A program made the translations under genes and the position numbers. DNA of 64,000 bases from Antedon mediterranea (Eukaryota; Animalia; Echinodermata), in contig NC_092678.1 of NCBI RefSeq assembly GCF_964355755.1, positions 25,375,365-25,439,364 on the forward strand, given 5' to 3'. Below the pieces are notes generated by a model. It was given only the letters and a program-made list of their open reading frames with translations, ran no database searches and had not been told where the DNA came from. Shown here one piece after another: positions 3,603 through 60,860 of this stretch. Each line of letters opens with the position of its first letter. The first letter of the stretch is position 1.

Positions 3603-6600
3603 CTGTACTACAGATCTGTGCTAACAAGGATCGTCTGGTAATTTTTATTTTGAATAATAATTTGACGAGCTTTCCTTTTGGGGATGGTAGACGTCCTAGA
3701 TTGTAATTTAACAGACCGTAACGACTCGTGTAACGTGGACAAAACACGTTCCATTTGTCATGATTTTTTAACTTACCGTCTTCTTCGTCTACAGTACGAA
3801 AGCGTGCTATTATTATTGCAACTCCAAATATTTGGGTGATTTGACAAATTAAATGATTGATTATGAATTAATTAGTCTTCTTTCAAGAGGGTATACAGTG
3901 TTCTGTAGCCCATCATTCATAACACTGCTTTTCACTTGGGAATTAGCACACAAAAAAAAAACTTAATTTGTTTGATTTGGCAAATAATTTGTATCAAGAA
4001 GGTATACTGTTGCCCATCATTGATAACACTGCCTTTCACTAGAATCATTAACACACAAAATAAACTTTAACATTTGTTTGATTTCGCAAATAAAAATATT
4101 GATGACCTTATTCATTTTGAAATGTCTTTCACATTTTGCTTTATGATAAATGTTTGGCAATAATATTAATGATTAAATTCACTTAACTATGTTTGTTTGT
4201 AAGATTATTCCCAACTGAACCTGTTGATACAGTTCCCATCCCAAATTTCCGTATCAAAGGTCAATTCTGAATTTATTCCGGTGGGAAAAGATAAGTTTGA
4301 AGGGAAAAATTAAGAGTCCTTGATATGCAAGTGTAAGGAGCTATAGATACAGTTAATATTATCTTGATCTTTGATCGATTGAAACGAAAGTGATTAATAA
4401 AAACCAGTAATATTCCCAATTTAATAACGCTCACTCAACCATATCCTTCCTTTTCTGTAATGTTCTTGGTTTCCAATGCGAAAAAAAAGTTGGTAAAATG
4501 ATAAAATGTACATTAGCAGCGGCAGACTGCATTAGACTGTAAACTCATAAAATAATATTGAGTTGTAACTCATAGATATGAACATATTATATTATGTTTA
4601 GTCTGTTTAGAAGTCATGTGAAATGTTATCATTGCCTATGTGAAATGTTATCATTGCCTAATATGTTAAATGTTAACTTTGCCTATGTTAAATGTTAACA
4701 TTAATGATACTTGCAATTTCTTTACTGTTTTTAAACCATAAGAAAATGTTAAAATATTACAAAAAGATGTAATGTATCATTGGAAATTTTGGGGGGATTT
4801 TTTATATTTTAAATATATGTAATTATTTTATTTGTTTTGACAGTGTGGCTTAAAAGGGAATCACATTGTGACAATGGTAGAAATACTGTATAAAGCATTG
4901 GGAAATGTGGCAGGTATGTAGGGCGTTCGTTGAATAATATCAATTTGCATACAGGTGTTGAAAATTATTAAAGAAGGTCCTGAGCACTGTACTTCAGTGT
5001 GACTGATTAAAAATATTGTCGTCAAAATGTCATTTTTAGGTGATAATTTGTTTATTTTTTGTGTTTTTTCCATGATTAGGTGATTATTACTGTGGCAGTG
5101 GGACAGGAGAGTTCTCTCTTCAATCCAACATGTCGTTACCTGAAGCTAGAAAATTCTTAAAAACTGAGATTTCGGTAAGTAAATTTTGAAATGATTTTTA
5201 ACGTTTAAATGCCATCTTGCGCCAACACATCGTCTCCACTTGTGCTTATAGTGCGCCACCTAGCGTCCCAGCAAGGCCGACTGCTTTAGTTCACTCGAGT
5301 GTTGTTGTGTTAGTATTTCAAATGGTTATTGTTTATAATCATCATAAGATAGTAGCGTCTTTATTGCTGTTGTGTCACATCAAGAATTGTGTTTGATTAC
5401 TGTATCTGATAATTTAAAAAAGGTTACCATAAGTTACAGTACAAATTAAACCATAGAAGTACACTAGGTACTCTGTAAAAATGTTTAAATGGAAGTCCGA
5501 GTAGACTATATACTACTACTAGTAGTAGTACAGTATATACAGTAGATTAGTATAATATAGATACAATACAGATTATCTATAGACTACTACTACGTAGTAG
5601 TAGTAGTAGTCTATAGATTAGTAATATAGATAGAATACAGATTACTACACTGTAGTATAGGGTAAAATGTGAGGGGACTAATTAAGGACCAGACAATTCA
5701 TGAGACAGTCTGCTGCCACTTCTTTTATCTTGACTACAATTAGGAAGTTGTTAAAATGATTTCCTTTTCAATGACAGTCATGCATATCATTTCATTTTGT
5801 ATCCAATGATTTAATACTTTTAATAAACATTACCTCCTTCTGTGGGGTTTTTTGTCAGACACTATAGTTTAATGTTTTCCTAGTACCATAAGCTATTAAT
5901 AAATATTTTAACTGTTTTCGTGTAAACTTTCAGACTATTATAATAAGTTGTCACATTTACGTGCAAAAATAACTTTGAATGAACTTGTAAATGTTGTCTT
6001 TCCTGATCAAATTGCGACTTATTGGAAGAAAAGACAGTGTAATGCTTTAGAAGCCACTCTTGTTCTTCATACTTGTTAACATGTGGTTTTGTTTTGCTTT
6101 TTAGAAAACTTTAAAAGAAGACCAATCAGTGTTTGATACTTTGCAGCACTTTGAAGACATGCTGAAGAGCTTAATTGAACACCCTGAATGGGGTCTAAGG
6201 TCAGATTAATTGAACACCCTGAATGGGGTCTAAGGTCAGATTAATTGAACACCCTGAATGGGGTCTAAGGTCAGATTAATTGAACACCCTGAATGGGGTC
6301 TAAGGTCAGATTAATTGAACACCCTGAATGGGGTCTAAGGTCAGATTAATTGAACACCCTGAATGGGGTCTAAGGTCAGATTAATTGAACACCCTGAATG
6401 GGGTCTAAGGTCAGATTAATTGAACACCCTGAATGGGGTCTAAGGTCAGATTAATTGAACACCCTGAATGGGGTCTAAGGTCAGATTAATTGAACACCCT
6501 GAGTGGGGTCTAAGGTCAGATTAATTGAACACCCTGAATGGGGTCTAAGGTCAGATTATGACAGCAAACAATTACCACCCGAGAATTACTTAGTATAAAT

Positions 6601-9600
6601 TACATCAAAGTACGGCAAAACATCTGACCAATTACTCAACACCCTGACGCAAGCTACTCCACAGTAGTAATTACAATTACTCAACACCCTGACGCAAGCT
6701 ACTCCACAGTAGTAATTACAATTACTCAACACCCTGACGCAAGCTACTCCACAGTAGTAATTACAATTACTCAACACCCTGACGCAAGCTACTCCATAGT
6801 AGTAATTACAATTACTCAACACCCTGACGCAAGCTACTCCACAGTAGTAATTACAATTACTCAACACCCTGACGCAAGCTACTCCACAGTAGTAATTACA
6901 CTTACTCAACACCCTGACGCAAGCTACTCCACAGTAGTAATTACAATTCAATTACTAATTCTATAATTGGTTATGCTAAATTTATATTGTAGGTTCTCTC
7001 AAAATCTCATACTTGTTGTCACATTTATTGTCAAAATGTCCGTTAAGACACCAACAGAACTTCTAAATAACTAAGATAAGATAATACGATTTATAAAGCA
7101 CACATATCCACAAAGTGTTCAAGGTGCTTGTAAAAACCATGAAAAATACTAACTATATCCGGAAAGAAGGATTTATATTATTTTAGTATAAAATAAACCA
7201 AATATTAAAGTATATTTTACAAACCCTTAATTGCAGATCCTATGATAGCAACGGACCAGTGAACCACGTTACCAAGACGTTCATGATGGAAGAAGTTAAA
7301 TGGTTGAAATCATCGCATCCCATCATGCCCCTCAAGTGCCGTGTTTCACGTTCCATTTCTTATGTATTCGTGCGTTTATTCTTTCTCGGTTCAGGTGCGT
7401 TATGTTACCATTGTCTAAAGTTTTGTGAGGACATGTGGCAGGATTGTCAATGTATTTTGACCGAAACATGTAGATTTACTCAGTTTTTTCAAGCTAATAC
7501 ATTGTTTTACTTCATATATTTTAATGTGTCCTCACAATGCTGACATTTTACAGTCCCAGGATGCTTTGCACCCATAAAGCATTGTATTTATCAGTTTCCC
7601 CAGGTCATGATATAATACTGTGTACTTTTCTAACATTCAAAGTTTTTTTTTAAGTTTCAGTTTATGTCATTTATGTGTATGCTGCCCTCTGTTGTTCAAA
7701 TAATCATAAACTTTTACCATTAATCATTGATTAAAAACTAATCTTGATTACAACATGGACACAATATTGTTGTGGTTCAGTTACTTACCCTCGGACACAG
7801 TTATCACTAACTGTGCGGTTAGGGGGGGATGGGGCGGAGGAAGAATTAATTACCCAGGTAACTAACTACAGACCCAATGTTGTTATATCTTAGTAAGCTT
7901 TTAATATTTCTTTTATAACTGCTTTGTGTTTATAGTTGTATTCATTGTGTGGGGTGTTTACATATTCATCAAACGCAGACAAGTGAGAGAGGAGGAAGAA
8001 CTGGGCCAAATGTATCAACTGGTAGATAGAATTATAGGTAAGAAGACATGATATCAAATGTATCAACTGGTAGATAGAATTATAGGTAAGAAGACATGAT
8101 ACCAAATGTATCAACTGGTAGATAGAATTATAGGTAAGAAGACATGATATCAAATGTATCAACTGGTAGATAGAATTATAGGTAAGAAGACATGATATCA
8201 AATGTATCAACTGGTAGATAGAATTATAGGTAAGAAGACATGATATCAAATGTATCAACTGGTAGATAGAATTATAGGTAACAAGACATGATACCAAATG
8301 TATCAACTGGTAGATAGAATTATAGGTAAGAAGACATGATATCAAATGTATCAACTGGTAGATAGAATTATAGGTAAGAAGACATGATATCAAATGTATC
8401 AACTGGTAGATAGAATTATAGGTAACAAGACATGATATCAAATGTATCAACTGGTAGATAGAATTATAGGTAAGAAGACATGATACCAAATGTATCAACT
8501 GGTAGATAGAATTATAGGTAAGAAGACATGATATCAAATGTATCAACTGGTAGATAGAATTATAGGTAAGAAGACATGATATCAAATGTATCAACTGGTA
8601 GATAGAATTATAGGTAAGAAGACATGATATGAAATGTATCAACTTGTAGATAGAATTATAGGTAAGAAGACATGATATCAAATGTATCAACTGATAGATA
8701 GAATTATAGGTAAGAAGACATGATATCAAATGTATCAACTGATAGATAGAATTATAGGTAAGAAGACATGATATCAAATTTATCAACTGGTAGATAGAAT
8801 TATAGGTAAGAAGACATGATATCAAATGTATCAACTGGTAGATAGAATTATAGGTAAGAAGACATGATATCAAATGTATCAACTGGTAGATAGAATTATA
8901 GGTAAGAAGACATGATATCAAATGTATCAACTGGTAGATAGAATTATAGGTAAGAAGACATGATATCAAATGTATCAACTGGTAGATAGAATTATAGGTA
9001 AGAAGACATGATATCAAATGTATCAACTGGTAGATAGAATTATAGGTAAGAAGACATGATACCAAATGTATCAACTGGTAGATAGAATTATAGGTAAGAA
9101 GACATGATATCAAATGTATCAACTGGTAGATAGAATTATAGGTAAGAAGACATGATATCAAATGTATCAACTGGTAGATAGAATTATAGGTAAGAAGACA
9201 TGATATGAAATGTATCAACTGGTAGATAGAATTATAGGTAAGAAGACATGATATCAAATGTATCAACTGATAGATAGAATTATAGGTAAGAAGACATGAT
9301 ATCAAATGTATCAACTGATAGATAGAATTATAGGTAAGAAGACATGATATCAAATGTATCAACTGGTAGATAGAATTATAGGTAACAAGACATGATATCA
9401 AATGTATCAACTGGTAGATAGAATTATAGGTAAGAAGACATGATACCAAATGTATCAACTGGTAGATAGAATTATAGGTAAGAAGACATGATATCAAATG
9501 TATCAACTGGTAGATAGAATTATAGGTAAGAAGACATGATATCAAATGTATCAACTGGTAGATAGAATTATAGGTAAGAAGACATGATATGAAATGTATC

Positions 9601-12600
9601 AACTGGTAGATAGAATTATAGGTAAGAAGACATGATATCAAATGTATCAACTGATAGATAGAATTATAGGTAAGAAGACATGATATCAAATGTATCAACT
9701 GATAGATAGAATTATAGGTAAGAAGACATGATATCAAATGTATCAACTGGTAGATAGAATTATAGGTAACAAGACATGATATCAAATGTATCAACTGGTA
9801 GATAGAATTATAGGTAAGAAGACATGATACCAAATGTATCAACTGGTAGATAGAATTATAGGTAAGAAGACATGATATCAAATGTATCAACTGGTAGATA
9901 GAATTATAGGTAAGAAGACATGATATCAAATGTATCAACTGGTAGATAGAATTATAGGTAAGAAGACATGATATCAAATGTATCAACTGGTAGATAGAAT
10001 TATAGGTAAGAAGACATGATATCAAATGTATCAACTGGTAGATAGAATTATAGGTAAGAAGACATGATATCAAATGTATCAACTGGTAGATAGAATTATA
10101 GGTAAGAAGACATGATATCAAATGTATCAACTGGTAGATAGAATTATAGGTAACAAGACATGATATCAAATGTATCAACTGGTAGATAGAATTATAGGTA
10201 AGAAGACATGATACCAAATGTATCAACTGGTAGATAGAATTATAGGTAAGAAGACATGATATCAAATGTATCAACTGGTAGATAGAATTATAGGTAAGAA
10301 GACATGATATCAAATGTATCAACTGGTAGATAGAATTATAGGTAAGAAGACATGATATCAAATGTATCAACTGGTAGATAGAATTATAGGTAAGAAGACA
10401 TGATATCAAATGTATCAACTGGTAGATAGAATTATAGGTAAGAAGACATGATATCAAATGTATCAACTGGTAGATAGAATTATAGGTAAGAAGACATGAT
10501 ATCAAATGTATCAACTGGTAGATAGAATTATAGGTAAGAAGACATGATATCAAATGTATCAACTGGTAGATAGAATTATAGGTAAGAAGACATGATACCA
10601 AATGTATCAACTGGTAGATAGGATTATAGGTAATAAGACATGATATCAAATGTATCAACTGGCAGATAGAATTATAGGTAAGAAGACATGATATCAAATG
10701 TATCAACTGGTAGATAGAATTATAGGTAAGAAGACATGATATCAAATGTATCAACTGATATATAGAATTATAGGTAACAAGACATGACAACATGCATGGG
10801 ATCATTATCAATGACATGAATGTAAACATTAATGTAATGAGTACCATAGAAAGAGTTGTAATGTTGATAAACACACATTAAGTCACCTTAAGGTCTTAAG
10901 CTCTGTCTACACTATCATTTGTATTTGTGACAAAAAGTGTGATGTGCCCATACAATATATGGACATATCACTTCCATATTTGGGCATATCATTTCCATAT
11001 TTGGGCACATCACATTTTGTTTGATAGTGTAGACAGAGCTTTTTGATAACCAAATTGAGTCACAGCCATATCTAAACCCATCCTTAATAAATTGGAATCT
11101 GTTGAACTACAGTATACTGTACAATTGGATGGTAAAGATATTTTCATGCATTTTGACAGCTGAACCAGTTTTAAAAAAGTACAAATAATTCGACTAATGA
11201 AACACTTATTCCAGTTGGTTACATTTTACAATGATGTCACTTCCAGGGATGTGAAGTTACCATGGTAACATGCATAAATTGGCTCCGTTCAAATTGGTCG
11301 AAATAAGAAGTGTAGCATGAACCCTGTGTGACTAATACAGTCTACATGTGCTCTATAATAATGGTTTTAATTGTAGATTTGCTGGCTAGCTTTAGCTGCT
11401 ATTAATAAAGTCTAGACAGGTAATTGTGCCAGTCATTAACTTGTGTGTGTTAACTATGTTTGTTTGGTCTAAGTTTTAGAGGAGTGGGACATAATTGAAT
11501 TTGGTGAACTTGCACTATAAAATAGACTTCCAATTTGAACTTTGGTGCTGCATAAATTGAGGACATTCATTTTGATTCACTTTAAGTGTATTCTGTGTCT
11601 TTTATGTGTAAACTGTCTTTGGGGTTGGACCAACCAACTCCACTACAGGGATTAAGTTCACTTAGGTTGACCCTGGTCTCCCCAATTTCATCATGTATAT
11701 AATATTGAAGTAGACCAAATAATAAAATGAATGAAATGAAAGGAAAAGTACATAAGGGTTGGGACACTCTTATTAATTAAAGAGACATTTTTTAGTCAAA
11801 CAAAAGCAATGTTTTTATTAGGGAGACACTTTGTGAGTCCCGAAAGGTGTCCCCTTAATAGAGAGTTCAATCTGCTTAATGTATGATCCTAATGTCCTTA
11901 AAATAACTTCTTATTTTTGTACAGAATTCTTACAAATCAACGGAGATAAATGTCAAGCTATACCACATGTCAGGGATCGTCTAATACCACCCTCAGAAAG
12001 GTACAAGAATCTAGCCCTGAATGTCTATAAACTAATCAATGTTTGAGCCCTACTTATGCATAATATTGTACGCATTGGTCAAAGTGATTGACCTTAATAT
12101 CATGACATTGATTATTTTGTAGCCCCGAATGTGTATAAACGAATGAATGTTTGAGCCCTAATTATGCATAATATTGTATGCAATGATCAATGTGATTGAC
12201 CTTAATATCATGAAATGTTATCATTTAACTGTCACACATTTTATGTTTCATCCAATATTTAATCACCATAAGTCTGCTTAGTTATTGTAATAAGATTTAC
12301 AGAAGTACTTAGTACTTATACTCCAATTACTGTAGTATGAACTTAACAACTTAGTATGCTACACATTCACTGTATTTATCAAACATTTAAATTTGTCCAT
12401 TTAGGAAATTGAGGCAGCGTGTTTGGGACAGAGCTGTCCGTTACATCAACTCCGAAGAATCGAGAGTTAGAGTAGAGACACAAAGCATTGTGGGAGAAGT
12501 TTTCTCTACATGGCGCTGGTTGCAACCGCAAACGACTGTTTCTTTTACACCAACAACTGAAACGGTAAGTTTAACAATTAACTCAATACAATGTTTTTTT

Positions 12601-15600
12601 TATTCATTTAGCATCCATTCAACAAAACATTTGAAATCACTCACCAAACACACTCTTAAACTGCCATTAAGGTGAGCGAGTGCAATCACTTGCCTAACAC
12701 ACTCCTCAAAGGCAGTTTAGTGATTAACAACACGATTAAATTTGGTAAACTTCTACACACCAAAGTACAAACAGCACACCTACAGCACCCCTGAATGTAT
12801 TAAGGAGTGCAATTTGTAGCACACCTACACACCAAAGTACAAACAGCACACCTACAGCACCCCTGAATGTATTAAGGAGTGCAATTTGTAGCACACCTAC
12901 ACACCAACATACATACAGCACACCTACAGCACCCCTGAATGTATTAAGGAGTGCAATTTGTAGCACACCTACACACCAACATACAAACAGCACACCTACA
13001 GCACCCCTGAATGTATTAAGGAGTGCAATTTGTAGCACACCTACACACCAACATACAAACAGCACACCTACAGCACCCCTGAATGTATTAAGGAGTGCAA
13101 GTTGTAGCACACCTACAATTTTAAAAAGACAAGGCTTGAATAAATACAAACAATTTATTATTAATGATTTGAAAGTTTGTTTTTCTATTATTTACTACAA
13201 GTTCAGAATAATTTTAGCTGAATCATGCATTCTCATTTCATTTATTTGACATCATGTCCTGATATACAAAGTGAGATCAAGCATAATAAAAACATATCAT
13301 AGAAATATAGTACAATCATGGAAGGAGTTACAAATTTTGACTTTGACTGTCTGTTTTCTTTCCGTTATCTTGTAATCCTTGACTTAATATCAATGAATCA
13401 TTTTTTAAACTTTTTTGTCTGTTTTTTTGTTGTAAATTATTAACAATTTACAATAAAATTATCTGACCTTCCTTAAACGGGTACATGTCTAAAATGCACC
13501 CCCAAAAAGGAGAACGCGAGAAAGAAAAATTAACAATTAAATAACTTTCACAGTTTATAATTTTTCAAATGAAATCCAGTAATGAAATTAAGTAAATAGG
13601 AAGAACATTCAAGTAAGAACTTAATTTAGAACCATTAATGATGTTAATATTATTGTCAACTCGTCCTTTGACCCAATGTTTGTCCTTTGACCAAATGTTT
13701 GTCCTTTGACCCAATGTTTGTCCTTTGACCCAATGTTTGTGCTTTGACCCAATGTTTGTCCTTTGACCCAATGTTGTGTTCAACTAAAATTTGGTGATAA
13801 TATTGTGTTAAGCTCTGTCTACACTATCAAACTTTATGCGAAAAAAAATGTGATGTGCCCATATTTGGACATGATGATGTCATTTCACTACTGTATTTGG
13901 GCATATCACTACCATATTTGGGCACATTACACTTTTTTTATAGTGTTGACAGAGCTTTAGTTAGGAGATTTATTAACAAACAATACAAAAGATTTGACTC
14001 ATTAGCTGTAATACAATGACTGTCTAGACAGACATAAAAATGAGACAATATAAATAGTGGCTACTGGCCTAGATGCAGGCCTCAAGAGTAGTAGTAGTAC
14101 TGTGATGCTCCTCATCACATTCTATATCCAGGCCACTCCATTTCCTTGTAATAAGAGTTCTGATGATGGCTGGTGCTGTGCCCATCGCGTCGGAGACGAT
14201 GGTTTCCTCGGATGAAGATGATGTTGATAATAAAACTTGTCTTTCTTTTTTCTCGCAGGATATGAAGTCGGGCAAAATCAAAGTTTGGCAGGGTCAAGGT
14301 AAGATAGTTATTTTATTTTTTTGTTTCTAAATTAAAGATGTATTGTCCCTTGAAACACAAAAAAATGAAGGTCAAAATATTCTAAATTTAAAGTGGCCAT
14401 ATCAAAGTAATATTAAAGTTATTCACTTTAAGTCGAAAATTTGAGCCAAAAACAACAAGTTTACGTAATTAACAGGTAAATTAGCTTGATTACATTTCAT
14501 CTGGAAAATCGTCACGAGCGAAAGTAAACAAAGATTTCAAACCATGAGTACGCATTATGCATATGCTAAATTAGGATTGTTTACAACTTGTCACGGTTAA
14601 GAAGGTATTTTCACACAGATCATGAGGAAGTTTTATGATTATGCATACAGAGTAGCCAAACAAGCGCGTTTCATTATGGGATATGTTTTGATTGAAAACT
14701 TTGACTGGAAGTCAAAGTTATTTTTTTAACAAAAAAACGTCTGTATTTCAGTAAAATTTTTTTTTTTTTTTCGGAAAAATTTTTGGTGATAGTTAATAAC
14801 TATTATGATACTTCAAAATGACCCACCTTTTTTCGAAATCTATTATTTTTTATTTTTTTGGAATTAGTCAAAGGGACAATACATCAGTTTAAATTCAATC
14901 AAATCTTCCAAAATATCTTTCTTTAAATAAACTCTTCCAAATTTCTCCATAAGTAATTTTGTTTTCAGTCTGAAAAACTTTACTTTAGCTTTAGGCTAGA
15001 ACAACTGGGCCAAGTTTTGAGAAATTTTTTTTTTTTTAATCATTTTGGAGGCCAAATTTCCAGAAAGTTTGACTGTACTAATGTCAGTAGCCTTTTGTTT
15101 GTTTGTTTGTTTGTTTGTTTGTTTACATCTTGAATGCAATCACAATAATTATGCTGTGCTAATGAAAGGTTTCTGGTTGTAGCTTTTGAGAACTTAGACA
15201 CGGCAGTGAAGACGGCTCCCGGTATCTATACTCAGTTTTTGAAGATACGCAACATGTTTGACCAATCATTGTAAGAACATTTTATCAATTCAAATTTATT
15301 GTATTCATCATTTATTTCTATTGTTTTTTAAAGATTTTTTACATTTTTAATGTTGTCTCAATTTTTATGAGATATTTTTGACATGCAATTTGGCCATTTG
15401 GTCACAGGAGATGTAAAGTTGGTCAGAATTATTTTATTTTTTTGGAAATAATGAGAATATATACAAGTACATACGATTGATGGCTTAGGATCTTACAGTT
15501 ACACATAGAAGATTTTAATTTTGACCCTTTATATTTAATTGCGATAAATAATATATGTTTGGATGTCTATTGAAACAATTGCTTTGTAACTATACTATTA

Positions 15601-16800
15601 TTTTTTGCTTTAAATTAACATTTTTTCAAGTTAACAATTTTTGTTTACATCCAATTTTTTGTCCAAGTGTGTGTATTACTATTTGCATATAACACAGTGG
15701 TTATATATGTTTATTTGTTTGTTTACAGAGAATCAAACACCAATGACTGGCAGGTAGAAATTGAAGATGCTATTTTAGACAAGGTTGGAGATGGCGTTAA
15801 GGTTCTCCACATTGCAGTCGATAAAAACTCACCAGAGGTAAGTACTTATTTTTAGTTTAAGTTTGTGCTGAGTGCAATCCTGAGTTTGTGCTGAGTGCAA
15901 TCCTGAGTTTGTGCTGAGTGCAGTCCTGAGTTTGTGCTGAGTGCAGTCCTGAGTTTGTGCTGGGTGCAGTCCTGAGTTTGTGCTAAGCATAGATTGCAGC
16001 TGAGCTATCTAAACGTGGCAGTTTCAAATACAACAATGTTTAATTTAATTGTGATTTTTGCTCTTTGTTTAGGGTTGTGTGTATAGCAAGATAGAGACCC
16101 CTGTGCAAGCTAGCTATGCCTATAGAGCACTCCAGGGCAGCTGGTTTGATGGTATAATATCTTATCATATCTTTTATTCTACAGTATATATTATACAGAT
16201 ATTGCCTGCTTAGAGGGGAAATATAACATATTTACTTGGCTATGTAATATATAAATGTAAAGACAGAGAAACTCTTAACTGCCAATGTATATTTAAATTT
16301 TAATTTGTCTGATTTTTCATATGTACTATCTTTGAAATATTGTAATGATGGATGATGAATTTGTGGTTCATAAAATAACAATAAAACAAATTTCAACTTT
16401 TAAAATAAAAAATAAATGTTGAATAATTTTACCCGAAGTCTCTGTCTACACTATCAAACTAGTTTGACCAACAAAGTGTGATGTGCCCAAATATTGTAGT
16501 GATATGACATCATCATGTTCATGTATGGGCACATCACATTTTTTTGTCACATAAAGTGTGATAGTGTAAACAAGTCTTACAGACTTTTTTGTTCCTTGTT
16601 TTCACATCTTTTGCATCTTTAATATTTTGTTGTTTTTTTTGACAGGTCGTCTAGTAACCGTAAAGTACTTAAAGCCAGATCGATATTACTACCGATTTCC
16701 ATCAGCGCGTGACATGGTGACCCCTCTGGTGCCCTCTACTTGTAAAAAGAAATCGCTTTCAAGCATGGACTTTGCAAGACCAACTATTGAATCAACATAA
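3603..16800 (+). CDS. LEMD3: Inner nuclear membrane protein MAN1 (LEM domain-containing 3), 3' portion; 5' exon(s) not identified in window
   Basis: GT-AG exons in continuous frame: 3603-3637 (least certain), 4844-4913, 5080-5174, 6105-6199, 7237-7394, 7936-8037, 11925-12000, 12405-12564, 14259-14298, 15183-15270, 15729-15837, 16073-16151, 16646-16800 (TAA). The peptide has MAN1 hallmarks: second TM segment then EEEELGQMYQLVDRII, IPHVRDRLIPP, VWDRAVRYINSEESRVRVE..WRWLQP (MSC/winged helix), KVWQGQAF, and the UHM/RRM LKIRNMFD..HIAVDKNSPEGCVY..GSWFDGRLVTVKYL..YYRFP. Confidence 0.93.
6171..6558 (+). repeat. 35-bp tandem array, 11 copies, spanning a LEMD3 exon end and donor
   Basis: Unit TTAATTGAACACCCTGAATGGGGTCTAAG|GTCAGA; the first copy is the real exon end at 6199. 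Confidence 0.95.
6628..6950. repeat. 45-bp minisatellite, ~7 copies
   Basis: Unit CAATTACTCAACACCCTGACGCAAGCTACTCCACAGTAGTAATTA. Confidence 0.95.
8007..10787 (+). repeat. 48-bp tandem array, ~58 copies, spanning a LEMD3 exon end and donor
   Basis: Unit CAAATGTATCAACTGGTAGATAGAATTATAG|GTAAGAAGACATGATAT; donors from 8038 to 10774 every 48 bp. Confidence 0.97.
10899..11040. mobile_element. MITE family A (PIF/Harbinger-like)
   Basis: TIRs AGCTCTGTCTACACTATCA / TGATAGTGTAGACAGAGCT; internal CCATATTTGGGCA motifs. Confidence 0.85.
12753..13117. repeat. 72-bp minisatellite, 5 copies
   Basis: Repeats of ...CAGCACACCTACAGCACCCCTGAATGTATTAAGGAGTGCAATTTGTAGCACACCTACACACCAA... Confidence 0.9.
13664..13775. 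repeat. 19-bp minisatellite, ~6 copies
   Basis: Unit CCTTTGACCCAATGTTTGT. Confidence 0.9.
13811..13956. mobile_element. MITE family A
   Basis: Same TIRs; TTA on both sides (3-bp TSD). Confidence 0.85.
14336..14888. mobile_element. Non-autonomous TIR element with TTAA flanks (Kolobok-like)
   Basis: TTAA|AGATGTATTGTCCCTT ... AAGGGACAATACATC(AG)T|TTAA; purine-purine 5' end plus TTAA target suggests Kolobok. Confidence 0.65.
15860..15984. repeat. 23-bp minisatellite, ~5.5 copies, 23 bp downstream of a LEMD3 donor
   Basis: Unit GTTTGTGCTGAGTGCARTCCTGA. Confidence 0.9.
16437..16577. mobile_element. MITE family A (diverged ends)
   Basis: CTCTGTCTACACTATCAAAC...GTGATAGTGTAAAC. Confidence 0.8.
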
Positions 16801-17482
16801 GTCGTCAAATTTAGTCTCCAATGAACCAGCAAACGATTTTAGTTTAGTCTCCAATGAACCAGAAGATTTTGAATGAGCAGTGCCAGATACCATTTCAATT
16901 GGTCAACATTTGCATATGCTAATTAATATTCATGAGCATTTAAAATGTGATTGAATGGTGATAAAGAGATTTTCATTCAATATCTATTTGTTTGTAACGA
17001 TAGTTAAATAGAATGTCACTAAATTAAACGCGTCTTTGGTAATGTATCAATAAATTGTTACTGGTCAAATGTGACCTGGTTGGTGTCCTGGTTGGTGTCC
17101 TATTGCCCAAATATGGCATTACCTAATATGGCACAGTAGCATAATGAACAATTCTCCAACCTTCGTCCTTGTTTATGGTTGCCGATTGGTCATGCACAGA
17201 TGTTTGTTACGCTTCATTGCTTCATAATCTTTGTGCTGATTCATGCAATCCTTACAAGATCAATTTTTAATATTTATGGTTCAAATTGAACAACAATTTT
17301 TGACAACAGTAATGTTTTTCTTTTACTAGTGAGCCTTGTTGCTTTATTACTAATCAGTCTTGTTGCTATAGCTGATATAGAGGTCATAGGTTATCTCTAA
17401 CAATTCTGCATTATTTATAATCTATTTGTATTATTTGATCAAGTGTAATCACATAATAGATTGAATTGTAGAGAACCTAACC

Positions 17483-20135: not shown

Positions 20136-20584
20136 TTAGACATTTTATTTCTCAGTCCAATATTACAGATGTTTGATAAGCATGGCATGCAATCATCAAA
20201 TCTTCCATTCTCTGCTGGCCTTGCATGCTACTACCCCCTACAGCAGCAGCAACAACAAATCAACGTGTAAATATCCCAACTTGATTTTGTATTCAACAAT
20301 CATGCTCTGCTTCAGTCTATTTTGAAGTGCATTTTGTATTTGTATTTTTGTATATTAAAATCTGTTATAACAATCTCAATTGATCATTGAAAATGCAACT
20401 AAATTTAAACTGATTTGATTGGTCAAATTTTATTCTGGTTTTTTGTAATATTGAGGTGTCTTCGGTCGGTGTATATTAAAATCTGTTATAACAATCTCAT
20501 GCAAAAAATGCAACTAAATTTAAACTGATTTAATTGATTGATTAATTTTTGTAAGAATATTTTTTGGGGAAAAATAAGGACATT

Positions 20585-21085
20585 AGGGAGGTTTCGCAAC
20601 CTTACGAATACGATAACGAAAACGGATACGTCACACATTTGTGAAACTTTTGAGCTGATCCCCATTTCATATTCCTAAAGCGTATTCGTGTTGACGAATA
20701 TCACCAGTCATATTCGTAACTACAAAACGAGTATAGTTTTTGATCTATTTTGCACATTTTGTATTTGAATCAGGAATGATTCATGATTATAATATAATTA
20801 TAGATTTATTGAAAGTAATTTACTAAAGTAATTTACTAAAATGCCAAGTAAATTTTGATAAATAGCAGTTTTTAAAGTCCTCACTCGCTTTGATGTTACG
20901 CTAGGCCTAGGCAGCCAAGCACCAAGCAACACGTTCCTGCGGTTCTCTCAAATTTACCGCAGTCATATTTTGGACGCGCCTCAATATTTCATTGCCTTGC
21001 GAAACAGATTTTTTATGGCTTACGAAAACGAATACGTGTGCGTGACGTTTTCGTTATCGTATTCGTAAGATTGCGAAACCTCTCT
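20585..21085. mobile_element. 500-bp non-autonomous TIR element
   Basis: ~40-bp TIRs AGRGAGGTTTCGCAAYCTTACGAATACGATAACGAAAACG; ATT on both sides (possible 3-bp TSD). Confidence 0.8.
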
Positions 21086-22329: not shown

Positions 22330-23511
22330 TTAGCAACACTTAGTTTTTCAATAAGTCTAATTCCGCTTTATGTACCATCTGATGAATGTTAAACTTTAAC
22401 TCGATTCTAACCCTCTCTGGCATTCGTCGAATTGTCTCCGCCATCGAACAAAAAAAATAATCGAGGTCGTCTTTCTGCGCATCAGCAATCTTTGCCTTCT
22501 GCGCTAAATATTCCGTGATACAATCGTTGGCATCAAAATTGGTGGAAGGGCGTCGTCTTTTAGCGAGGGCTGGTGTTGATGTTGTTAATGAGACGAACGA
22601 GGGATTGTCTTGTCGTATGTGATTATACTCGTCTTCATTGTGTTCAATGATACTGACAACGCTATTGTAGTGTTCTTCCTCACTTACAGTGTCTGGTATT
22701 TCGAGGCTACTGCTACTAAAATATTGTGGAAAAAAAATTGTTAAATTAAATAAATGATCAGAACTTTGAGAGTGCTAGTTCCTTAAGAGTTTTTTAGTGG
22801 TTAATTCTGCATTCATAATGGCTACCATTAAATGTTTAACTGTTATTTATTATTTTATTTAAATATTATTTTATTTAGTTTATTTGGTACTCACTCTCTA
22901 AAGTGTGGTGTCAGAAATGTGAGAATATCTGCATATTTGTATTTCTTTATAACTTTATCTGTGGCAACTTTCTTGCGGCTGCTGTTAAATGCATCTCTCA
23001 CATTGTTCCACTTTTTCCGTGCCAATTCTCCTAAACAAAAGAAAAAACATTACAATTATTGTATGTCGATTCTAAGCTAAACTAGCATAGCCTTGTTATT
23101 CAAATACAACAATTAAAACACCAATGCCGATGGCAAAATCGATCTCCATGGTTACGTCAGTACTTCAACAATTTAATTCATTGAATTTTGAAATCTAGGC
23201 CTAGGCCTATGCCTATCTATAGCCTACTCTAAATGGCCTACATTTCATGGCCTACTACTACTACTAGACTAGCCTACCTACTTAAACTTAGTTAGGCCTA
23301 GCCTACCTAAGGCTCTAGCTAGGCCTTGCCTACCTAAATAGAGGAAGTAGCCTACACAAAACTCACCACTCATTCCTGTCCTCATCCCTATGTCTTGCCA
23401 CATGTCCCTTTTCATTGGAATGTTCTTGAAGTTCGGATCAGATTTGTCATATAACATAGGATTTTGTTCAACTTCTGCAATCAAAGTTTCAATTTTGTGA
23501 TCATCAGTCAT
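22330..23511 (-). CDS. MADF (Myb/SANT-like) + BESS domain protein, 3 coding exons
   Basis: Minus-strand exons 23511-23367, 23030-22895, 22715-22330 with GTGAGT donors and AG acceptors join in frame. N-terminus LIAEVEQNPMLYDKSDPNFKN..KRDMWQDIG..ARKKWNNVRDAF..YKYADILTFLTPH fits MADF; C-terminus DDLDYFFCSMAETIRRMPERVRIELKFNIHQMVHKAE fits BESS; TAA at 22332-22330. Only the first exon appears in the ORF track. Confidence 0.85.
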
Positions 23512-23891
23512 ATTTAACAACACTTCCTAGCAACTGGCACAAAAACACACTTTAACTTTTAATTTAAAAACTTTTTAAAAGGAAAATCGATCGATGGCAT
23601 GCACGTATCTGATTGGTTGAAACTTTTTATCGTCGTTGATAAAAAAAAATCGGTCAACGTTATTGTTCAGACGTACTGCTGACTGGCGTTTTAACGTTAA
23701 CAAAATCGTAAAACTAAACTGCTCTATCCACCATTTTGCTTTTGTTTTATCGGTATCGTTATCGGTGGCGTGACCTATGACGTCAACGACACTGAGACGT
23801 TGGGGGCGGAAAGACTAAAAAAACATAAACAGAGCATGTTTTGAAGGCTGGCCTAGCTCGACATCATCAGGAGAGAGATAAAAAGGCTAAA
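23512..23891. promoter_or_regulatory. Probable bidirectional promoter between MADF-BESS gene and ACOX1
   Basis: Divergent ATGs only 380 bp apart; CpG-richer than flanks; perfect CRE TGACGTCA at 23778-23785, reverse CCAAT (GATTGG) at 23611, GGGGCGG at ~23803. Confidence 0.6.
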
Positions 23892-26800
23892 ATGTCGTCA
23901 GTTAATCGAGATTTACAGAAGGAAAGAGATAAAGCAACAATTGATTCTTCTCTTATAACTCATATTTTGGATGGAGGAATAGAGAACACAAATTACCGGC
24001 ATTATGTTGGTAAGTATAGATAAATGAATAGGCCTAGCTAGTACTAGTATAGTAGTAGAGCTAGCTAGGCCTAGGCTAGCTACTGCTGGACTAAGATAGA
24101 TAGTAAGGTAGCCGGGCCGGGCCGGGCCGGGCCGGGCCGGGAGGCGAAGTTTATCTCCTAAATCAGCCATGCATGTCTGCCATCCATTGGCTGCGCGTTG
24201 TGCAAGTAGGCCATCCAGGGACCATAAAAAGAATTTCATTGATAAACTGCAGAAAGATGTACAGTTGATAAATGCTAATGTTATGCGCGATTTGAACGAT
24301 TTGCGCAATTTGAAATTGCGCAAGGATTTTCTTGCGCAATTTAAAATTGCGCAAAAAATTCCTTCCAATTTGAATTGAAACATGTGTTTCAAATTGCGCA
24401 AGCAACGTATTAAATTGCGCAAGTAATCTGCAAATTGCGCAAGGTTTTTCGACAGATTGTGAAATCATGCACACCCATATTTTTTAGTAATTTCTAAGAA
24501 TGATTCAAAATTAAAGATAATATCGCATTTCCTTACCCTCCCGGGAGCTTCCTTACCCTCCCGGGAGCTTCCCTCCCGAATTTTTTTTTTCCGAATAAAA
24601 AAAATCTTGAATTCCCAATGGTTCTATAAAATACCATATTCACACATAATATGAGGAGAAGGTATAAATAAATACCAATAGTATAATATAATAATTTCAA
24701 TTCAAATATCAGTACTAATGACGATTAATTAGAAACAATAATTAATACGAATTATTAGACGTCTACTATTTAACTTAAAAATTAATTTTAATGACAAAAA
24801 ATATCGACCTTTCGGTACCATTCTCAACAACAAATGAGTACAATAATAAAAATAACAAACAGTTCGTTTTCAAATTGCGCAAAGGTATCATATTGCGCAA
24901 GAACTATCTTGCGCAATTTACAAATTGTGCAGCGCAATTTGAAATTGCGCAAGGATTTTCTTGCGCAATTTCAAATTGCGCAAGTTGATTGCGCAATTTA
25001 ATATTGCGCAAGAAAATCCTTGCGCAATTTCAAATTGCGCAAGAATTCTTTGCGCAATTTTAAATTGCGCAAATCGTTCAAATCGCGCATAACACTAACA
25101 CTGCATACGTTTCGCATTATTGTGGTTGTGTGTGAATTTGAATAAGTGAAACAAAAATGATGGGGTACTATTTCTGTGTAGATTTTAAAATTATGTTTTT
25201 ATTTAAATAAATATATCAATTTCTTAATTTCAGAGAAACTTCTTCTTGAAGACCCAATATTTGATGAAAAAGACAGGTACCTGATTGGTCCAGAAGAAAA
25301 GTATGACCTTTCAGTCAAAAGGTCACTGCACTTATCTAAACTTTTGAAGAAGCATAACATAAAACTAGATGGTGACGCTTTGCTTCTTATATCAAGGTTG
25401 GTGTTTGTAGTGTGCAGTCAATTTTGACATAACCCACAAAAGTGACCAAAATGTCTTGCATACAACATCATGATAATGCATTTATTTTATTCACCTTCCT
25501 ACTGTCCTTCCAATAATGTCATTCACCGTCTGAAAAACTCAATTTTGTATGCATTATTTGTTATTGAAATATATTGATAACGTAGTTTCCATAAGTACCT
25601 CATTTAGGAAAAATTCTGTTTAATAGAATATTTCTCCTTTTTAACATAATTGGTTGTGAACTCAAGGTATGCATATATTTACCAGGGAATAATTTTACCA
25701 ACGTAGCATAGCAAAAAGTACCTTACTGCTACACATTTATTTAACATTTGATTGCAAAAAAGTACAATACAATTTAACTATGTTTCTAAACTTAACATTC
25801 AGTTTGATAAGCTAAATATTGTTAAGTATACTGAACACACATAACATAAGATAACTTTATTTCATCCACAAACAAGTGGAAATAATGATGCTTGTCTCAT
25901 ACAAAGATAAAACATAACAGAAAAACAAATATCAAAAGAATTCTATCCTAAAGTTATCAATGTAAAGTCAAATCATCAACATAATGTAACACATTGTGTT
26001 TGTGTTATTGTAGGACTTTGAACTCCGATTTGGCTTTATCTATTCACTATCTAATGTTTATGCCGACTATCGAGAGGCTTGGAACCGACGAACAAAAAGC
26101 AAAATGGATAAAGCTTGCTAGTGAATTCAAAATAATTGGCACGTATGCCCAGACAGAGCTGGGCCATGGTGAGAAACTTGTTGAATTCTACTGCATAGAT
26201 AGCTAGGCCATGGTGAGAAACTTGTTGAATTCTACTGATAGACATTTTTTTTTTATAAAGAAAATAAATCAAACTGAACAAATATTATTTTATAAACAAG
26301 CTTCCTATTAATATCAAAGAAATCAAACATTTTGTTCAATTTAAGAAAGAATTAAAGAAACATCTTTTACTTAAATATCAAGCATTTTAATTATATATTA
26401 TTGTTCATTATTCTCACTTGTTCTTTATATTTTTTGTAACCATGTTACCGTCTGTCTGTCTCAACCTTGTCTGTCCATCATTTCACCGCTACTTATGTTT
26501 TCTAATAATCATCCAAAACTCGCCTTAAAAGTCAAACTATTTTGCATAATTTTCAGGAACATATTTAGGTGGACTTGAAACCACTGCAACTTATGATGCA
26601 TCAAATCAGGAATTTGTCTTAAATTCACCAACTTTAACATCTATGAAATGGTGGCCAGGAGGATGTAAGTATTGACTGGAATATGAGCTCACCTTCTAAT
26701 TTACAGTGATTTTCATACAGAAGCCCACCCACTATAATTACAGAATTAGAGGAAAGGATGTCGTAATGTATTGATATACCCAAATATGGTAGTGATATGC

Positions 26801-29800
26801 TCAAATATGGTAGTGATATGCTCAAATATGGTAGTGATATGCTCAAATATGGTAGTGATATGCTCAAATATGGTAGTGATATGACATGTCCATATATGGA
26901 TGGATGATTGATAGTGTACACAGAGCTTTACAGTTAAGTTTACCCATATTAGTTCAATTTCAATCTAGCTCCTAGTATAAAGTAACTTTTCTTTCACTTT
27001 TGACTTTATCTTTTATGTAGTGGGTTTAAGTTGCAATTATGCTGTGTTGTTGGCTCAGCTTGTGATTCAGGGTAAAAAATATGGACCTCATGCATTCTTG
27101 GTGCAAATACGAAGTCTTCATAATCATCAGCCACTCCCAGGTATGTATAACACCAGCCGCGCCCTGGTATGTGTAACACCAGCCACGCCCTGGTATGTGT
27201 AACACCAGCCACGCCCTGGTATGTGTAACACCAGCCACGCCCAGTAATGTTTAATATCATCGGCCACACACAAAGACCTTTGAACCTAATCTTTTGACCA
27301 TACAATCCACATCTTATTTTGAGAATATAATATTTTGAATAAAGAATTGTAAAAATAAAATTACTAATTATTTAAACTATTTTCATATTTCAGGAAGACA
27401 AATGGGTGACATTGGATTGAAATGGGACTATAGCACTGTAGATAACGGCTTCTTACGTCTTGATAACGTCAGAATACCCAGAGATCAAATGCTAATGAAA
27501 TATACTAAGGTTTGCTCAATTTTTCCAAAATTCATCTTCAATATTCATATTAAAGAATGATCATCTGTCACAAAATGTCTTCCGGATGTTTTGCTTAGTG
27601 TTAGCTCTGTCTACACTATCAAACTAAAAAATGTGATGTCATATCACTGGCATATTTGGGCACATCAAACCTTTTTTTTTTGTCAAACTAGTTTGATAGT
27701 GTAGACAGAGTTTTAAAGGGTTTTCACGAGTGTGGTATTGTGTCAGTACAGCCTCATATTTATAACAAGACCCATTTGTATTATGTAATTGTGATTGACC
27801 TCATTGTCTGACATGTGACCATGTTTCTATCACTGTCATTTTAGGTGGCACCAGATGGAACATACAGTACAACTGGCAATATCAAAGTAACATACGGTAC
27901 AATGATATCAGTCAGGCTCACAATTATAGCGTTCAGTTTCCTTGAACTTGCACGCGCCCTTACTATCGCTGTTAGGTACAGCGCTGTGAGGAGACAGGCA
28001 CCATTAGAAATTGGGTAAGTTTTAAATTGAATATATGAAGTAGAATTTATGATCCGATGTCATCAAAACTTCATCAGACATTGAACCCTTCTTATAAGAT
28101 ACAGAAGCCAGATGAAATTATTTTTATTCAATACAAATTCTTTATTCATTCCACATGGGGCAATTTCAATTCATATGTTATTATATAGAGTGTAGTTTAA
28201 GAATTATACTTTAAGTTAAACTTATGGTAAATGTTCTAACCCTAACCCTCTAATTATTGCTAGGCCTACACACCTAATATCTCACTTTTTTATTCCTATA
28301 TATCAAGAGGGGATGAAGTGCAAATTCTTGACTACCAAACACAGCAACAGAAGCTATTTCCAGGCCTAGCTACAGCATATGCATTTTGTTTTATTCATCA
28401 GAAAATCACAAAAATGTATCACAAAATGGAGACTGAAATAATGCAGGACAATTTCCAATCCTTGCCAGAGGTGGGTTAATAAATTAATTTTTTATGTTTT
28501 CAGTTTTACATTTAAATATACAAAAAAATATGTTTTGTTAATCTCCATTAAACTGCCATTTTCTTTTGTGTTTTTGAGCTGTCATCCATTCAGACTCTAG
28601 ATAATAATATAAAATCTTTGGTTTTTGAATGAAAGTTTTTACATTTCAGCTTCATGCTCTGTGCTGTGGGTTGAAGTCTTTTTGTACGTCTACTAGCGCT
28701 GAATTTATTAATATTTGTCGGTTTGCGTGTGGTGGCCAAGGATTACTGATGTCAAGTGGCCTGCCCTCAATATACGCAAGATTCTCAGCATCATGCACAT
28801 ACGAGGGCGACAACACTGTCATGATGCTGCAGCTTTCACGGTAAATTTGTGTAAATTATCTCACAATATTTCAAGATCCTTAGCATGCCAGCCTAAAGCT
28901 CTGTCTACACTGTCAAACTTTATGATAAAAGAGTGATGTTCCTAAATATGGTAGTGATATGCCTGAATATGGTAGTGATATGACATCATTGGTCCATATA
29001 TGGGCACATCACATAAAGTTTGATAGTGTAGACAGAGCTTAAGCTGACTATTAATTATATTGTATATTTTGTTGCATTGACATGTTTCAATATTTATACA
29101 TATTTGTAAATTACTTTAGATATTTGTTGAAGTGTTTGAGGAAAGCACAAGAAGGGGTGACAATAGAAGGCTCAGCTTCGTATCTATCTGATATTTCTGA
29201 TGATCAACTCACTACTTCTGATGACTGCTGGACTCAGCCTCAGTTCTTGTGCAATGCATTTAGAATAAGATCCTACAAGTATGTTCATTTTATTTTAATT
29301 ATTGATATTTGTTTCTTAAAATGTATCTATGATAAAGGCAAATGTCTGAAAACAATGACAATGTTGTTGGTATCAATGGCTGATGGAGATACAAAATAAA
29401 ATAAGCAAAAAGCTAAATCAAAATAGCCAGAAAAATGTGCAGAACTTCGGATAACACTAGCAACAGTGCAAGATAAAATATATATATGAATATAAATATA
29501 ATCATTTTATGTGTTCTCATGTTCAGAGTCAATACTGAACTGAAATCCTAAATCTTGTAGATACATATAATAATAGAGTTGTGTTTGTCATGCAAAGATT
29601 GTCCAACTCGTACAAGATTTAACTCAAATCTTTTAATAATAGCAGTAACTTTCTTTGATAGACTTGTGATGGCTGCTGGACAGAAGATTGGTGTTCTGTT
29701 AGCCAATGGCAAGACACCAGGTCAGGCCTGGAACGAGAGCCTGGTCCAGCTTGTCAACTGTGGAAAGGTAAGCATTTATTTGGTTGATGATTTAACTTTT

Positions 29801-32800
29801 TGACTTGTATTGATATTGATAACTTTAGGATAGAATTTTTTTGATATTTGTTTTTCTGTTATGTTTTATCTTTGTATGAGACAAGCATCATTATTTCCAC
29901 TAGTTTTGTTGGCGATCATATTATAATACAAATACAGATTGCATCGAATAAAAGGAAAATGATTTATATAAATTAAATATAATAATAATATATACACTCT
30001 TTCGTAAACTCTCTCATGTGCATTATTGAACTAACAACTTGTTTTGATTACCTTTGATTGTAGGCTCATATGCATCATGTGCATTATTGAACTAACAACT
30101 TGTTTTGATTACCTTTGATTGTAGGCTCATATGCAGTATTTTGTTCTAAGTAGCTTCGTAGAACGCCTTACAGATTTACAAACAACGTTTGCTATAAAAA
30201 CCAAACTAAATGAGCTATGCCAGCTATTTGGCTTGTACTACATAACAAGGAATAGAGCGGATTTTATGATGGTATGTACATGTAGTTACAGTCATCTTCA
30301 CTTCTAATGATGGTATGTACATGTAGTTACAGTCATCTTCACTTCTTATGATGGTATGTACATGTAGTTACAGTCATCTTCACTTCTTATGATGGTATGT
30401 ACATGTAGTTACAGTCATCTTCACTTCTAATGATGGTATGTACATGTAGTTACAGTCATCTTCACTTCTAATGATGGTAAGTACATGTAGTTACAGTCAT
30501 CTTCACTTCTAATGATGGTATGTACATGTAGTTACAGTCATCTTCACTTCTTATGATGGTATGTACATGTAGTTACAGTCATCTTCACTTCTTATGATGG
30601 TATGTACATGTAGTTACAGTCATCTTCACTTCTAATGATGGTATGTACATGTAGTTACAGTCATCTTCACTTCTAATGATGGTATGTACATGTAGTTACA
30701 GTCATCTTCACTTCTAATGATGGTATGTACATGTAGTTACAGTCATCTTCACTTCTAATGATGGTATGTACATGTAGTTACAGTCATCTTCACTTCTTAT
30801 GATGGTATGTACATGTAGTTACAGTCATCTTCACTTCTTATGATGGTATGTACATGTAGTTACAGTCATCTTCACTTCTAATGATGGTATGTACATGTAG
30901 TTACAGTCATCTTCACTTCTTATGATGGTATGTACATGTAGTTACAGTCATCTTCACTTCTTATGATGGTATGTACATGTAGTTACAGTCATCTTCACTT
31001 CTTATGATGGTATGTACATGTAGTTACAGTCATCTTCACTTCTAATGATGGTATGTACATGTAGTTACAGTCATCTTCACTTCTTATGATGGTATGTACA
31101 TGTAGTTACAGTCATCTTCACTTCTTATGATGGTATGTACATGTAGTTACAGTCATCTTCACTTCTAATGATGGTATGTACATGTAGTTACAGTCATCTT
31201 CACTTCTAATGATGGTATGTACATGTAGTTACAGTCATCTTCACTTCTTATGATGGTATGTACATGTAGTTACAGTCATCTTCACTTCTTATGATGGTAT
31301 GTACATGTAGTTACAGTCATCTTCACTTCTAATGATGGTATGTACATGTAGTTACAGTCATCTTCACTTCTTATGATGGTATGTACATGTAGTTACAGTC
31401 ATCTTCACTTCTTATGATGGTATGTACATGTAGTTACAGTCATCTTCACTTCTTATGATGGTATGTACATGTAGTTACAGTCATCTTCACTTCTAATGAT
31501 GGTATGTACATGTAGTTACAGTCATCTTCACTTCTTATGATGGTATGTACATGTAGTTACAGTCATCTTCACTTCTTATGATGGTATGTACATGTAGTTA
31601 CAGTCATCTTCACTTCTAATGATGGTATGTACATGTAGTTACAGTCATCTTCACTTCTAATGATGGTATGTACATGTAGTTACAGTCATCTTCACTTCTT
31701 ATGATGGTATGTACATGTAGTTACAGTCATCTTCACTTCTTATGATGGTATGTACATGTAGTTACAGTCATCTTCACTTCTTATGATGGTATGTACATGT
31801 AGTTACAGTCATCTTCACTTCTAATGATGGTATGTACATGTAGTTACAGTCATCTTCACTTCTAATGATGGTATGTACATGTAGTTACAGTCATCTTCAC
31901 TTCTAATGATGGTATGTACATGTAGTTACAGTCATCTTCACTTCTTATGATGGTATGTACATGTAGTTACAGTCATCTTCACTTCTAATGTATGTATGTA
32001 CATGTAGTTACAGTCATCTTCACTTCTAATGTATGTAAAGCTCTGTCTACAATATGTGTTGTGCTCATATATGGACATGATGATGTCCTATCACTACCAT
32101 ATTTGGGCATAACACTACCGTATTTAGGCATATCAAACTAGTTTGATAGTGTAGATAAAGCTTTAGATTGCTATTGCTATTAGGAAGGATTTTCTGTATT
32201 GTTTTACATAAATCACATTCATCATAAAACATAAAGTGGAGTTAAATCTCATTAAATGTGTAACTTTATATTAATGTTTTTGTCTGCATGTTATTATTAT
32301 CTACAAAAGCATATCAAATGTGCTAGTTGTGTTTTACACTAAGTTAGTTATGTAAAATGCGATTCATAACATTTTATAGGTGCTGTAATATAATCTATAA
32401 AATTACTCTATTAAATTTACAATTTACTTTTATCACTTTTTATTTATAATAATTATATTTGCTATAAGTTACTTTACAGCATTTACAAAAAAGACATTTC
32501 ATAAACGTATTCTATACATTTAATTTCTATACTTTTTCCCGTGGGAGATTTCTTACAAGTGTTTTCTCCAAAGAGAAATAAAAATGACTCAAGTTTGATA
32601 TTTATCTTCTGCTATCTTTGCACTGACATACTTATAGTCTAATCATTGCAATGTATTTCATCACAATATCAACATGTCTAGGAATTCACATCACAGCTCA
32701 AAATGCTCACTATAAGACATTACATTTACTACATGAATTACATTCCTCACATTAAAAGCAACATGTGATGTATTTGCCTACACAGATCTTTTCATATTAA

Positions 32801-60849: not shown

Positions 60850-60860
60850 GTGTTGGCAAT

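Follow-up and report, generated by a model that had tools for sequence, protein, structure and literature searches.

Tandem arrays built from splice junctions in two genes of the crinoid Antedon mediterranea are likely neutral minisatellites of a known type

Why should a gene carry up to dozens of copies of its own splice sites, and do such copies affect the way it is spliced? The question is raised by a 64,000-nucleotide stretch of the genome of Antedon mediterranea (assembly GCF_964355755.1, contig NC_092678.1, positions 25,375,365 to 25,439,364; hereafter the window, with position 1 as its first letter). An earlier annotation made from the letters alone (hereafter the sequence-only reading) had listed six duplications in two genes there, each straddling an exon/intron boundary. 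Tandem Repeats Finder (TRF) and exon models agree with it on places, units and copy numbers: five arrays lie over donors and one over an acceptor, confined to a LEMD3/MAN1-like and an ACOX1-like gene. We consider it likely that these six unrelated arrays are neutral minisatellites, of the type called 'mirages' in lancelets and seen in human F7, which persist since splicing probably keeps to the exon-adjacent site. The two host genes and the six arrays are as follows.

4844..16800, + strand: LEMD3/MAN1-like gene, 12 exons in the window, partial (the 5' part lies upstream of the modelled exons), with a 408-amino-acid open translation.
6171-6558, + strand: 35-bp x11.1 array (TRF), repeating the exon's last 29 nt and the intron's first 6 nt; authentic donor after 6199.
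8007-10787, + strand: 48-bp x57.9 array (TRF), repeating the exon's last 31 nt and 17 nt of intron; authentic donor after 8037.
23892..35578, + strand: ACOX1-like peroxisomal acyl-CoA oxidase gene, 15 exons, 661-amino-acid open translation with an SKL end, matched by spliced contigs.
26157-26242, + strand: 44-bp x2.0 duplication (TRF), spanning the donor after 26168.
27128-27242, + strand: 26-bp x4.4 array (TRF), spanning the donor after 27140.
30014-30135, + strand: 61-bp x2.0 exact duplication (TRF) of 50 nt of intron and 11 nt of exon; acceptor 30125, decoy 30064.
30264-32031, + strand: 41-bp x43.1 array (TRF), repeating the exon's last 8 nt and 33 nt of intron; authentic donor after 30271.

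Unit sizes thus run from 26 to 61 bp, and each array spans an authentic boundary whose borders are backed by spliced contigs. In all six the authentic junction sits within the first or last unit, and that unit forms part of the open reading frame, that is, of the local gene sequence. As had been claimed, the units are unrelated to each other (no 8-9-base word common to two of them ranks among the top shared words), and the two longest arrays in the window are both junction-spanning: the 48-bp array measures 2781 bp and the 41-bp array 1768 bp, the next longest array being 692 bp. Decoy donors in the 35-bp, the 44-bp and most of the 48-bp and 41-bp units are identical to the authentic donor, and all 11 donors of the 35-bp array are identical. 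Stronger donors do not explain where the arrays lie; donors at arrays match 5-8 of the 9 positions of the U1 consensus, compared with a mean of 6.5, and are no stronger than donors elsewhere. A single decoy of the 41-bp array, at 30477, has acquired a full GTAAGT and matches U1 better than the authentic donor does, which makes it a natural test of first-donor choice.

Given so many decoys, one might read meaning into the consequences of using them. Every extra donor, and likewise the upstream acceptor at 30064, leads to a premature stop, and each unit of the 48-bp array carries an in-frame stop. This much of the sequence-only reading is borne out, but the pattern does not go beyond chance. When duplications were simulated over the 48 donors of the four + strand gene models in the window, 61,468 of 73,592 (0.835) were unproductive, so that six out of six carries p ~0.34. 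That every extra site is unproductive is therefore the chance expectation and has no weight.

Which site, then, does the RNA use? Two sequencing runs, X5 and X9, were classed as RNA from their spliced contigs; X5 represents one RNA sample from a different individual, and assembled contigs of this kind lose rare forms. In the X5 contigs the authentic site is used at five of the six junctions, namely the first donor at four of the five donor arrays and the exon-proximal acceptor. For the donors after 26168 and 27140, contig offsets are constant at six of six points under a first-donor model, and the contig sum is constant at five of five points when acceptor 30125 (the last) is combined with the first donor after 30271. 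Consistent with this choice of acceptor, an RNA contig lacks the 61-nt insert. At 6199 a spliced contig opens with a base that is present only before the exon copy of the 35-bp unit. The remaining junction, at 8037, is seen joined to 11925; which of the 48-bp copies serves as its donor cannot be told, because the exonic part of the unit, at 31 nt, equals the contig word length. The word length of Logan contigs is 31. No contig shows a join to an AG inside an array.

The arrays are likely harmless because the assembled RNA takes the original splice site wherever this can be told. We picture their history in three steps, all of them conjectural. A piece of 26-61 bp would first be duplicated through slippage or break repair, and unequal exchange would then expand some of the copies. 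By eye, short direct repeats can be seen at the ends of several units; the 61-bp unit has none at its junction. Finally, the exon would stay intact, bounded by the donor of the first copy or the acceptor of the last, with all extra copies departing with the intron, and since they are removed in this way the arrays should be nearly neutral.

Repeats of this type are already known, from lancelet mirages and from human F7 and CBS (published systems are described here and below as they appear in extracts of the cited papers). The 37-bp variable-number tandem repeat in intron 7 of human F7 spans a donor, and the most upstream donor alone is used; arrays in CBS, 6-16, lamin B2 and PDGF are listed alongside it (PMC1557585). 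Arrays of the F7 type resemble those described here in having their first unit over the donor, identical pseudo-donors behind it and use of the most upstream donor. They differ in that the human examples are scattered single cases, whereas 5 of 48 donors are affected within one window here, and in that donor choice at F7 was shown by minigenes and here by contigs of one sample only. Lancelet mirages, found at Adh3, TnC, the globins BflGb6 and BflGb9, and PGBD5, occur on both sides of exons and leave splicing undisturbed; their origin is called unclear, and a role in intron gain has already been proposed (PMC3087553, PMC3902484). Like the crinoid arrays, they repeat their own exon-intron border in tandem, with several per gene or locus and unrelated units of tens of bases, and they affect both donor and acceptor sides. 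Unlike them, the present arrays belong to an echinoderm host, reach up to 58 copies and are divided between five donors and one acceptor. On the acceptor side the closest parallel is CBS 844ins68, where the exon-proximal site wins (PMC2630376). It shares with 30014-30135 the two copies of ~60-70 bp over an intron-exon junction and, so far as contigs of one RNA sample tell, use of the copy adjoining the rest of the exon and a normal mRNA; the CBS allele, in contrast, carries a linked mutation which splicing removes, and the copies at 30014-30135 are exact.

Several points weigh against reading the arrays as neutral repeats of this type. The RNA evidence comes from a single sample of another individual, in contigs that miss rare forms, and the only array demonstrated in that sample is the 48-bp one, precisely where the donor copy in use is not tellable. 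Human 6-16 and CBS use their nearest decoys to some extent (PMC1557585). The 26-bp array seems to have arisen before organisms A and B parted (see below), and pure chance placement fits poorly, with five donors spanned compared with 1.2-1.5 expected.

The arrays might, of course, owe their existence to the assembly, a prospect for which the near-identity of the copies speaks and nothing further. Run X1 may be the sample from which the window came. It holds a 78-base contig of the 48-bp unit at a depth of 388.5, compared with 8.95 on the flank. The resulting ratio of 43 lies close to the 40.6 expected from the copies in the window, the share of a second haplotype aside. In X1 the bin where the 41-bp array begins stands at 190.8, compared with ~16 for unique sequence (~12x). 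The 48-bp unit is found in a second sample, X5, as well, and the units carry structured variants. Since both long arrays are also found in sequencing-run contigs, they are not assembly artefacts; that reading is largely refuted for these two, and for the arrays at large we give it next to no credence. Separately, X1 depth over 6950-8036 is 8.95, half of the 15-17 seen in the ACOX region, which suggests two strongly different haplotypes over this interval.

A comparison with a relative provides a view of how quickly the arrays change. Organism B is close, with 9 differences in 262 exonic bases (run X9). In its run X6 the 48-bp unit has a depth of 54-55, inside the range of 31-64 for unique sequence, and a contig exits the donor at 8043 into sequence that resembles the flank after the array in the window. 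The bin of the 41-bp array has depths of 29.7 in X6 and 17.9 in X8, and the X6 contig near this array matches 30082-30284 only, with letters that differ on both sides. Judging from these depths and contigs, organism B therefore lacks both the 48-bp and the 41-bp array, and it probably lacks the 61-bp duplication too. Long arrays, it follows, turn over fast, although contigs collapse arrays and the comparison between organisms A and B thus concerns presence or absence alone. Over the 44-bp duplication X6 and X8 have no coverage, a gap that proves nothing. The 26-bp array behaves differently in that contigs of X1, X6 and X8 all resume at 27213, inside the array; from this break point it is likely common to organism B. 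Copies change within arrays as well: +5 has lost its G in 7 of the 58 copies of the 48-bp array, and all three decoys of the 26-bp array read CTG|GT against the authentic CAG|GT (a change at -2), while the exon copy is free of the changes that the decoys have in common. The 48-bp array contains recurring multi-unit blocks, which unequal exchange would produce, and these blocks together with the changes common to the 26-bp decoys amount to concerted turnover inside arrays.

With these observations in hand, two further accounts can be weighed. The sequence-only reading had put forward the idea that decoy donors act on splicing; they would then tune the output of LEMD3 or ACOX according to array length, through binding of the U1 small nuclear ribonucleoprotein (snRNP) or by diverting a share of transcripts to nonsense-mediated decay. 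We regard this as improbable. It could draw on the unproductive outcome at every extra site, already seen to be what chance delivers, on the many decoys equal to the authentic donor (the full GTAAGT of one 41-bp decoy included), and on the fact that human tandem repeats can shift splicing (PMC10078293). A contig of the 48-bp unit also has a depth of 54.5 in the RNA run X5, ~16x the intron background of 3.5, but this needs no decoy use, since unspliced RNA or many-copy DNA explains it. The authentic sites in the RNA contigs speak against tuning, and a regulatory role is further made unlikely because a close relative does without the two long arrays and because the decoy donors mutate.

Alternatively, the arrays might be stages of intron gain or recursive AG|GT ladders, in which the AG of a later copy acts as an acceptor and so creates a new intron or mini-exon. 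Units of 35 bp and 48 bp do hold AG|GT, the shorter of which allows an in-frame mini-exon of 30 nt to be drawn, and a route from mirage to intron has been proposed for lancelet globins (PMC3087553). Yet the AGs tested in these two units lack a pyrimidine tract, with pyrimidine fractions upstream of 0.39-0.50 compared with 0.71 on average across the 49 true acceptors, and two of the three have another AG in a zone that is clear in all 49; the joins this account calls for are, moreover, the ones absent from the RNA contigs. The classic route, intron gain by tandem genomic duplication (the Rogers model), gives rise to a new intron by copying a segment of exon (PMC3443670). It has in common with the present arrays that an AG/GT signal is repeated by tandem duplication, but all six units here include true intron sequence, with its real ends, and merely lengthen an existing intron. 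The intron-gain account, a route that the sequence-only reading had also mentioned, we hold to be very improbable.

If the arrays are likely neutral, why do they sit at donors? The window is array-rich anyway: TRF returns 55 array clusters, 49 of which span no junction. To establish an expectation, two wholly exonic clusters were removed and each array was collapsed to one unit for placement, the nulls covering the 48 donors and 49 acceptors of the four + strand gene models. Five donors are spanned compared with 1.47 expected under uniform placement of 53 arrays (p 0.014), and with 1.25 expected when the 42 arrays not derived from a miniature inverted-repeat transposable element (MITE) are placed uniformly (p 0.0075). 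Placement matched for G+C content (GC; 40 arrays) gives an expectation of 1.45-1.47 donors (p 0.013; any junction p 0.05), and when the 26 intronic arrays may move only within the intron that holds them, 1.36 are expected (p 0.007). Acceptors show no excess, with 1 of 49 spanned compared with 1.3-1.5 expected. For any junction, six are observed compared with 2.5-2.9 expected (p 0.034-0.07), and at a TRF score of 30 the six compare with 3.5-3.9 (p 0.13-0.19; 0.19 with 117 arrays), donors alone having p 0.028-0.045 (0.045 with 117 arrays). The donor excess over chance is therefore modest (p 0.006-0.014 across the main nulls), and it should be borne in mind that the window was singled out for this very pattern after the fact, out of very many. 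Within the window, overlap of arrays with splice sites beyond random positions is modest for donors and absent for acceptors.

Base composition provides part of this signal at most. Window DNA has a GC content of 30-37%, and GC matching lifts the donor expectation merely from 1.21 to ~1.46, so that GC bias fails as the whole cause. As an observation apart, founder units of non-junction arrays are richer in GC than the non-exonic background (27 units, mean percentile 0.66, Kolmogorov-Smirnov p 0.008). Nor is a common seed motif established: CCCTGAATG, found in the units at 6171, 12012 and 12753, has p 0.02 at a word length of 9 and p 0.12-0.66 at five other word lengths. Four array units of the LEMD3-like gene within 6.6 kb (6171, 6629, 12012 and 12753) have CCCTGA in common, and three of them hold CCCTGAATG.

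The donor excess may instead be one side of something broader. A second detector of our own found 43 clusters, of which 9 MITE, 2 exonic and 2 low-complexity clusters were removed. Among the 30 duplications used, 9 span a 3' coding edge or begin no more than 25 bp from one, compared with 1.88 expected, and 1 of the 30 does so at a 5' coding edge. Four of these go beyond the duplications of the sequence-only reading, two of them lying past donors (by 12 and 23 bp) and two past stop codons (by 10 and 15 bp); taken alone, they compare with 0.79 expected (p 0.009 at 25 bp). Three of the four stop codons have a duplication beginning 0-11 bp away. The duplications in question that begin past donors and stop codons are these.

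12012..12213, + strand: 108-bp x1.9 duplication, beginning 12 bp past a donor, the donor itself excluded.
15860..15984, + strand: 23-bp x5.4 array, beginning 23 bp past a donor.
16810..16862, + strand: 33-bp two-copy duplication, 10 bp past the LEMD3-like stop codon; found by our own detector and absent from the TRF list.
35576..35684, + strand: degenerate 21/38-bp array, beginning at the ACOX stop codon.
60860..61019, + strand: 41-bp x3.9 array, 11 bp past the TBC1D30-like stop codon by TRF and at +71 by our own detector.

If real, such a bias concerns exon ends and not the spliceosome, because stop codons are hit where there is no splice site. To the account of neutral minisatellites one may add that coding exons would acquire short tandem duplications preferentially at their 3' edge, whether or not a splice signal is present there. 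The likely cause would be that recombination or repair slips at the passage from conserved exon to an intron that diverges between the two haplotypes, or else a transcription-linked pause, and selection would prune events on the acceptor side. In favour of this addition, which we hold to be possible but on the doubtful side, the donor excess persists under GC matching and own-intron conditioning. Against it, the 25-bp cut-off was picked after seeing the data (widening it to 50 bp and 100 bp raises p for the four extra duplications to 0.076 and 0.21, respectively), and the window was preselected. The first two genes, moreover, hold all five donor arrays, on 5 of their 25 donors, and the other two genes have 0 on 23 donors. 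Note also that the direction of transcription is confounded with that of the chromosome, because all four genes lie on the + strand. The notion of a mutational bias at exon edges, as the sequence-only reading framed it, thus draws weak support from the donors and from duplications after donors and stops, with acceptors at chance. That there is some real excess at 3' edges of coding exons we consider about evenly balanced. A more general claim would be that the 3' edges of coding exons, after stops as well as at donors, are favoured birthplaces of tandem duplications, both in this crinoid and maybe in further marine invertebrates of high polymorphism. Mirages would then be the visible mark of a mutational hotspot, sited where conserved DNA adjoins divergent DNA or tied to transcription, and would owe nothing to splicing as such; this we judge rather unlikely.

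The gene models on which these counts depend were built by hand for four + strand genes, none of which (0 of 4) has an internal stop in its translation. Besides the two host genes they comprise the following.

41056-46249, + strand: PORCN-like MBOAT gene, open model; Pfam MBOAT above cut-off.
47070-60849, + strand: TBC1D30-like gene, open model; Pfam RabGAP-TBC above cut-off.

Pfam was run exon by exon, with a match in 7 of 11 exons. Exons of the ACOX1-like gene match ACOX, ACOX_C_alpha1 and Acyl-CoA_ox_N, all above cut-off, whereas the LEMD3/MAN1-like exon 12405-12564 has a weak match to MSC (E 0.0023) below cut-off. Beyond these domains the names of the four genes are tentative, and 4844..16800 is called LEMD3/MAN1-like for its likeness to human LEMD3 together with the weak MSC match. 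Spliced contigs connect 6199-7237, 7394-7936 and 8037-11925 in this gene. For a TBC1D30 exon, the one protein found among 1560 candidates came from the feather star Anneissia japonica (67%), and the whole TBC1D30-like model aligns end to end with the Anneissia japonica protein at 71%, in keeping with a crinoid source.

A fifth gene, small and of three exons, at 23511-22400 on the - strand, matches the Pfam MADF DNA-binding domain (E 1.1e-07). It lies head-to-head with ACOX, the start codons being ~380 bp apart, and is possibly transposon-derived. Its two donors and two acceptors are outside the nulls; including them would lift expectations by ~4%. Within a TBC1D30 intron, 57737-57863 looks like an exon with AG and GT ends, but would shift the frame and was excluded from the model; it is possibly a poison exon or pseudo-exon. 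Intron 1 of ACOX contains an element at 24277-25100 whose two ends, 24301-24354 and 24911-25072, abound in palindromic TTGCGCAA repeats; by eye the ends look mutually inverted, and the element is possibly a non-autonomous transposon. A very abundant MITE-like element of ~100-150 bp has inverted ends and, between them, a 21-bp repeat whose copy number varies. Nine copies fit a strict end pattern and more are apparent by eye, among them 10901-11038, 27605-27710, 28899-29037, 41326-41475 and 56531-56660, and its run depth is >100,000. One MITE-like copy, at 32041-32160, directly adjoins the end of the 41-bp array.

For a variable-number tandem repeat in human UPF3A the literature search returned no paper. 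Nor did the literature searched, which lacks most subscription papers, yield any study that tests splice donors for arrays across a genome, searches on mirages outside lancelets included; one study counts repeats at exon-intron boundaries, but solely in human segmental duplications (PMC2812944). The present finding extends mirage minisatellites to an echinoderm and offers a densely packed natural case for asking how the first donor is chosen from as many as 58 near-identical ones, and it also calls for caution in gene annotation and short-read mapping. If the bias towards 3' edges were true genome-wide, it would provide a mutational mechanism for mirages, whose origin is called unclear in PMC3087553, and would imply a steady supply of duplicated splice sites.

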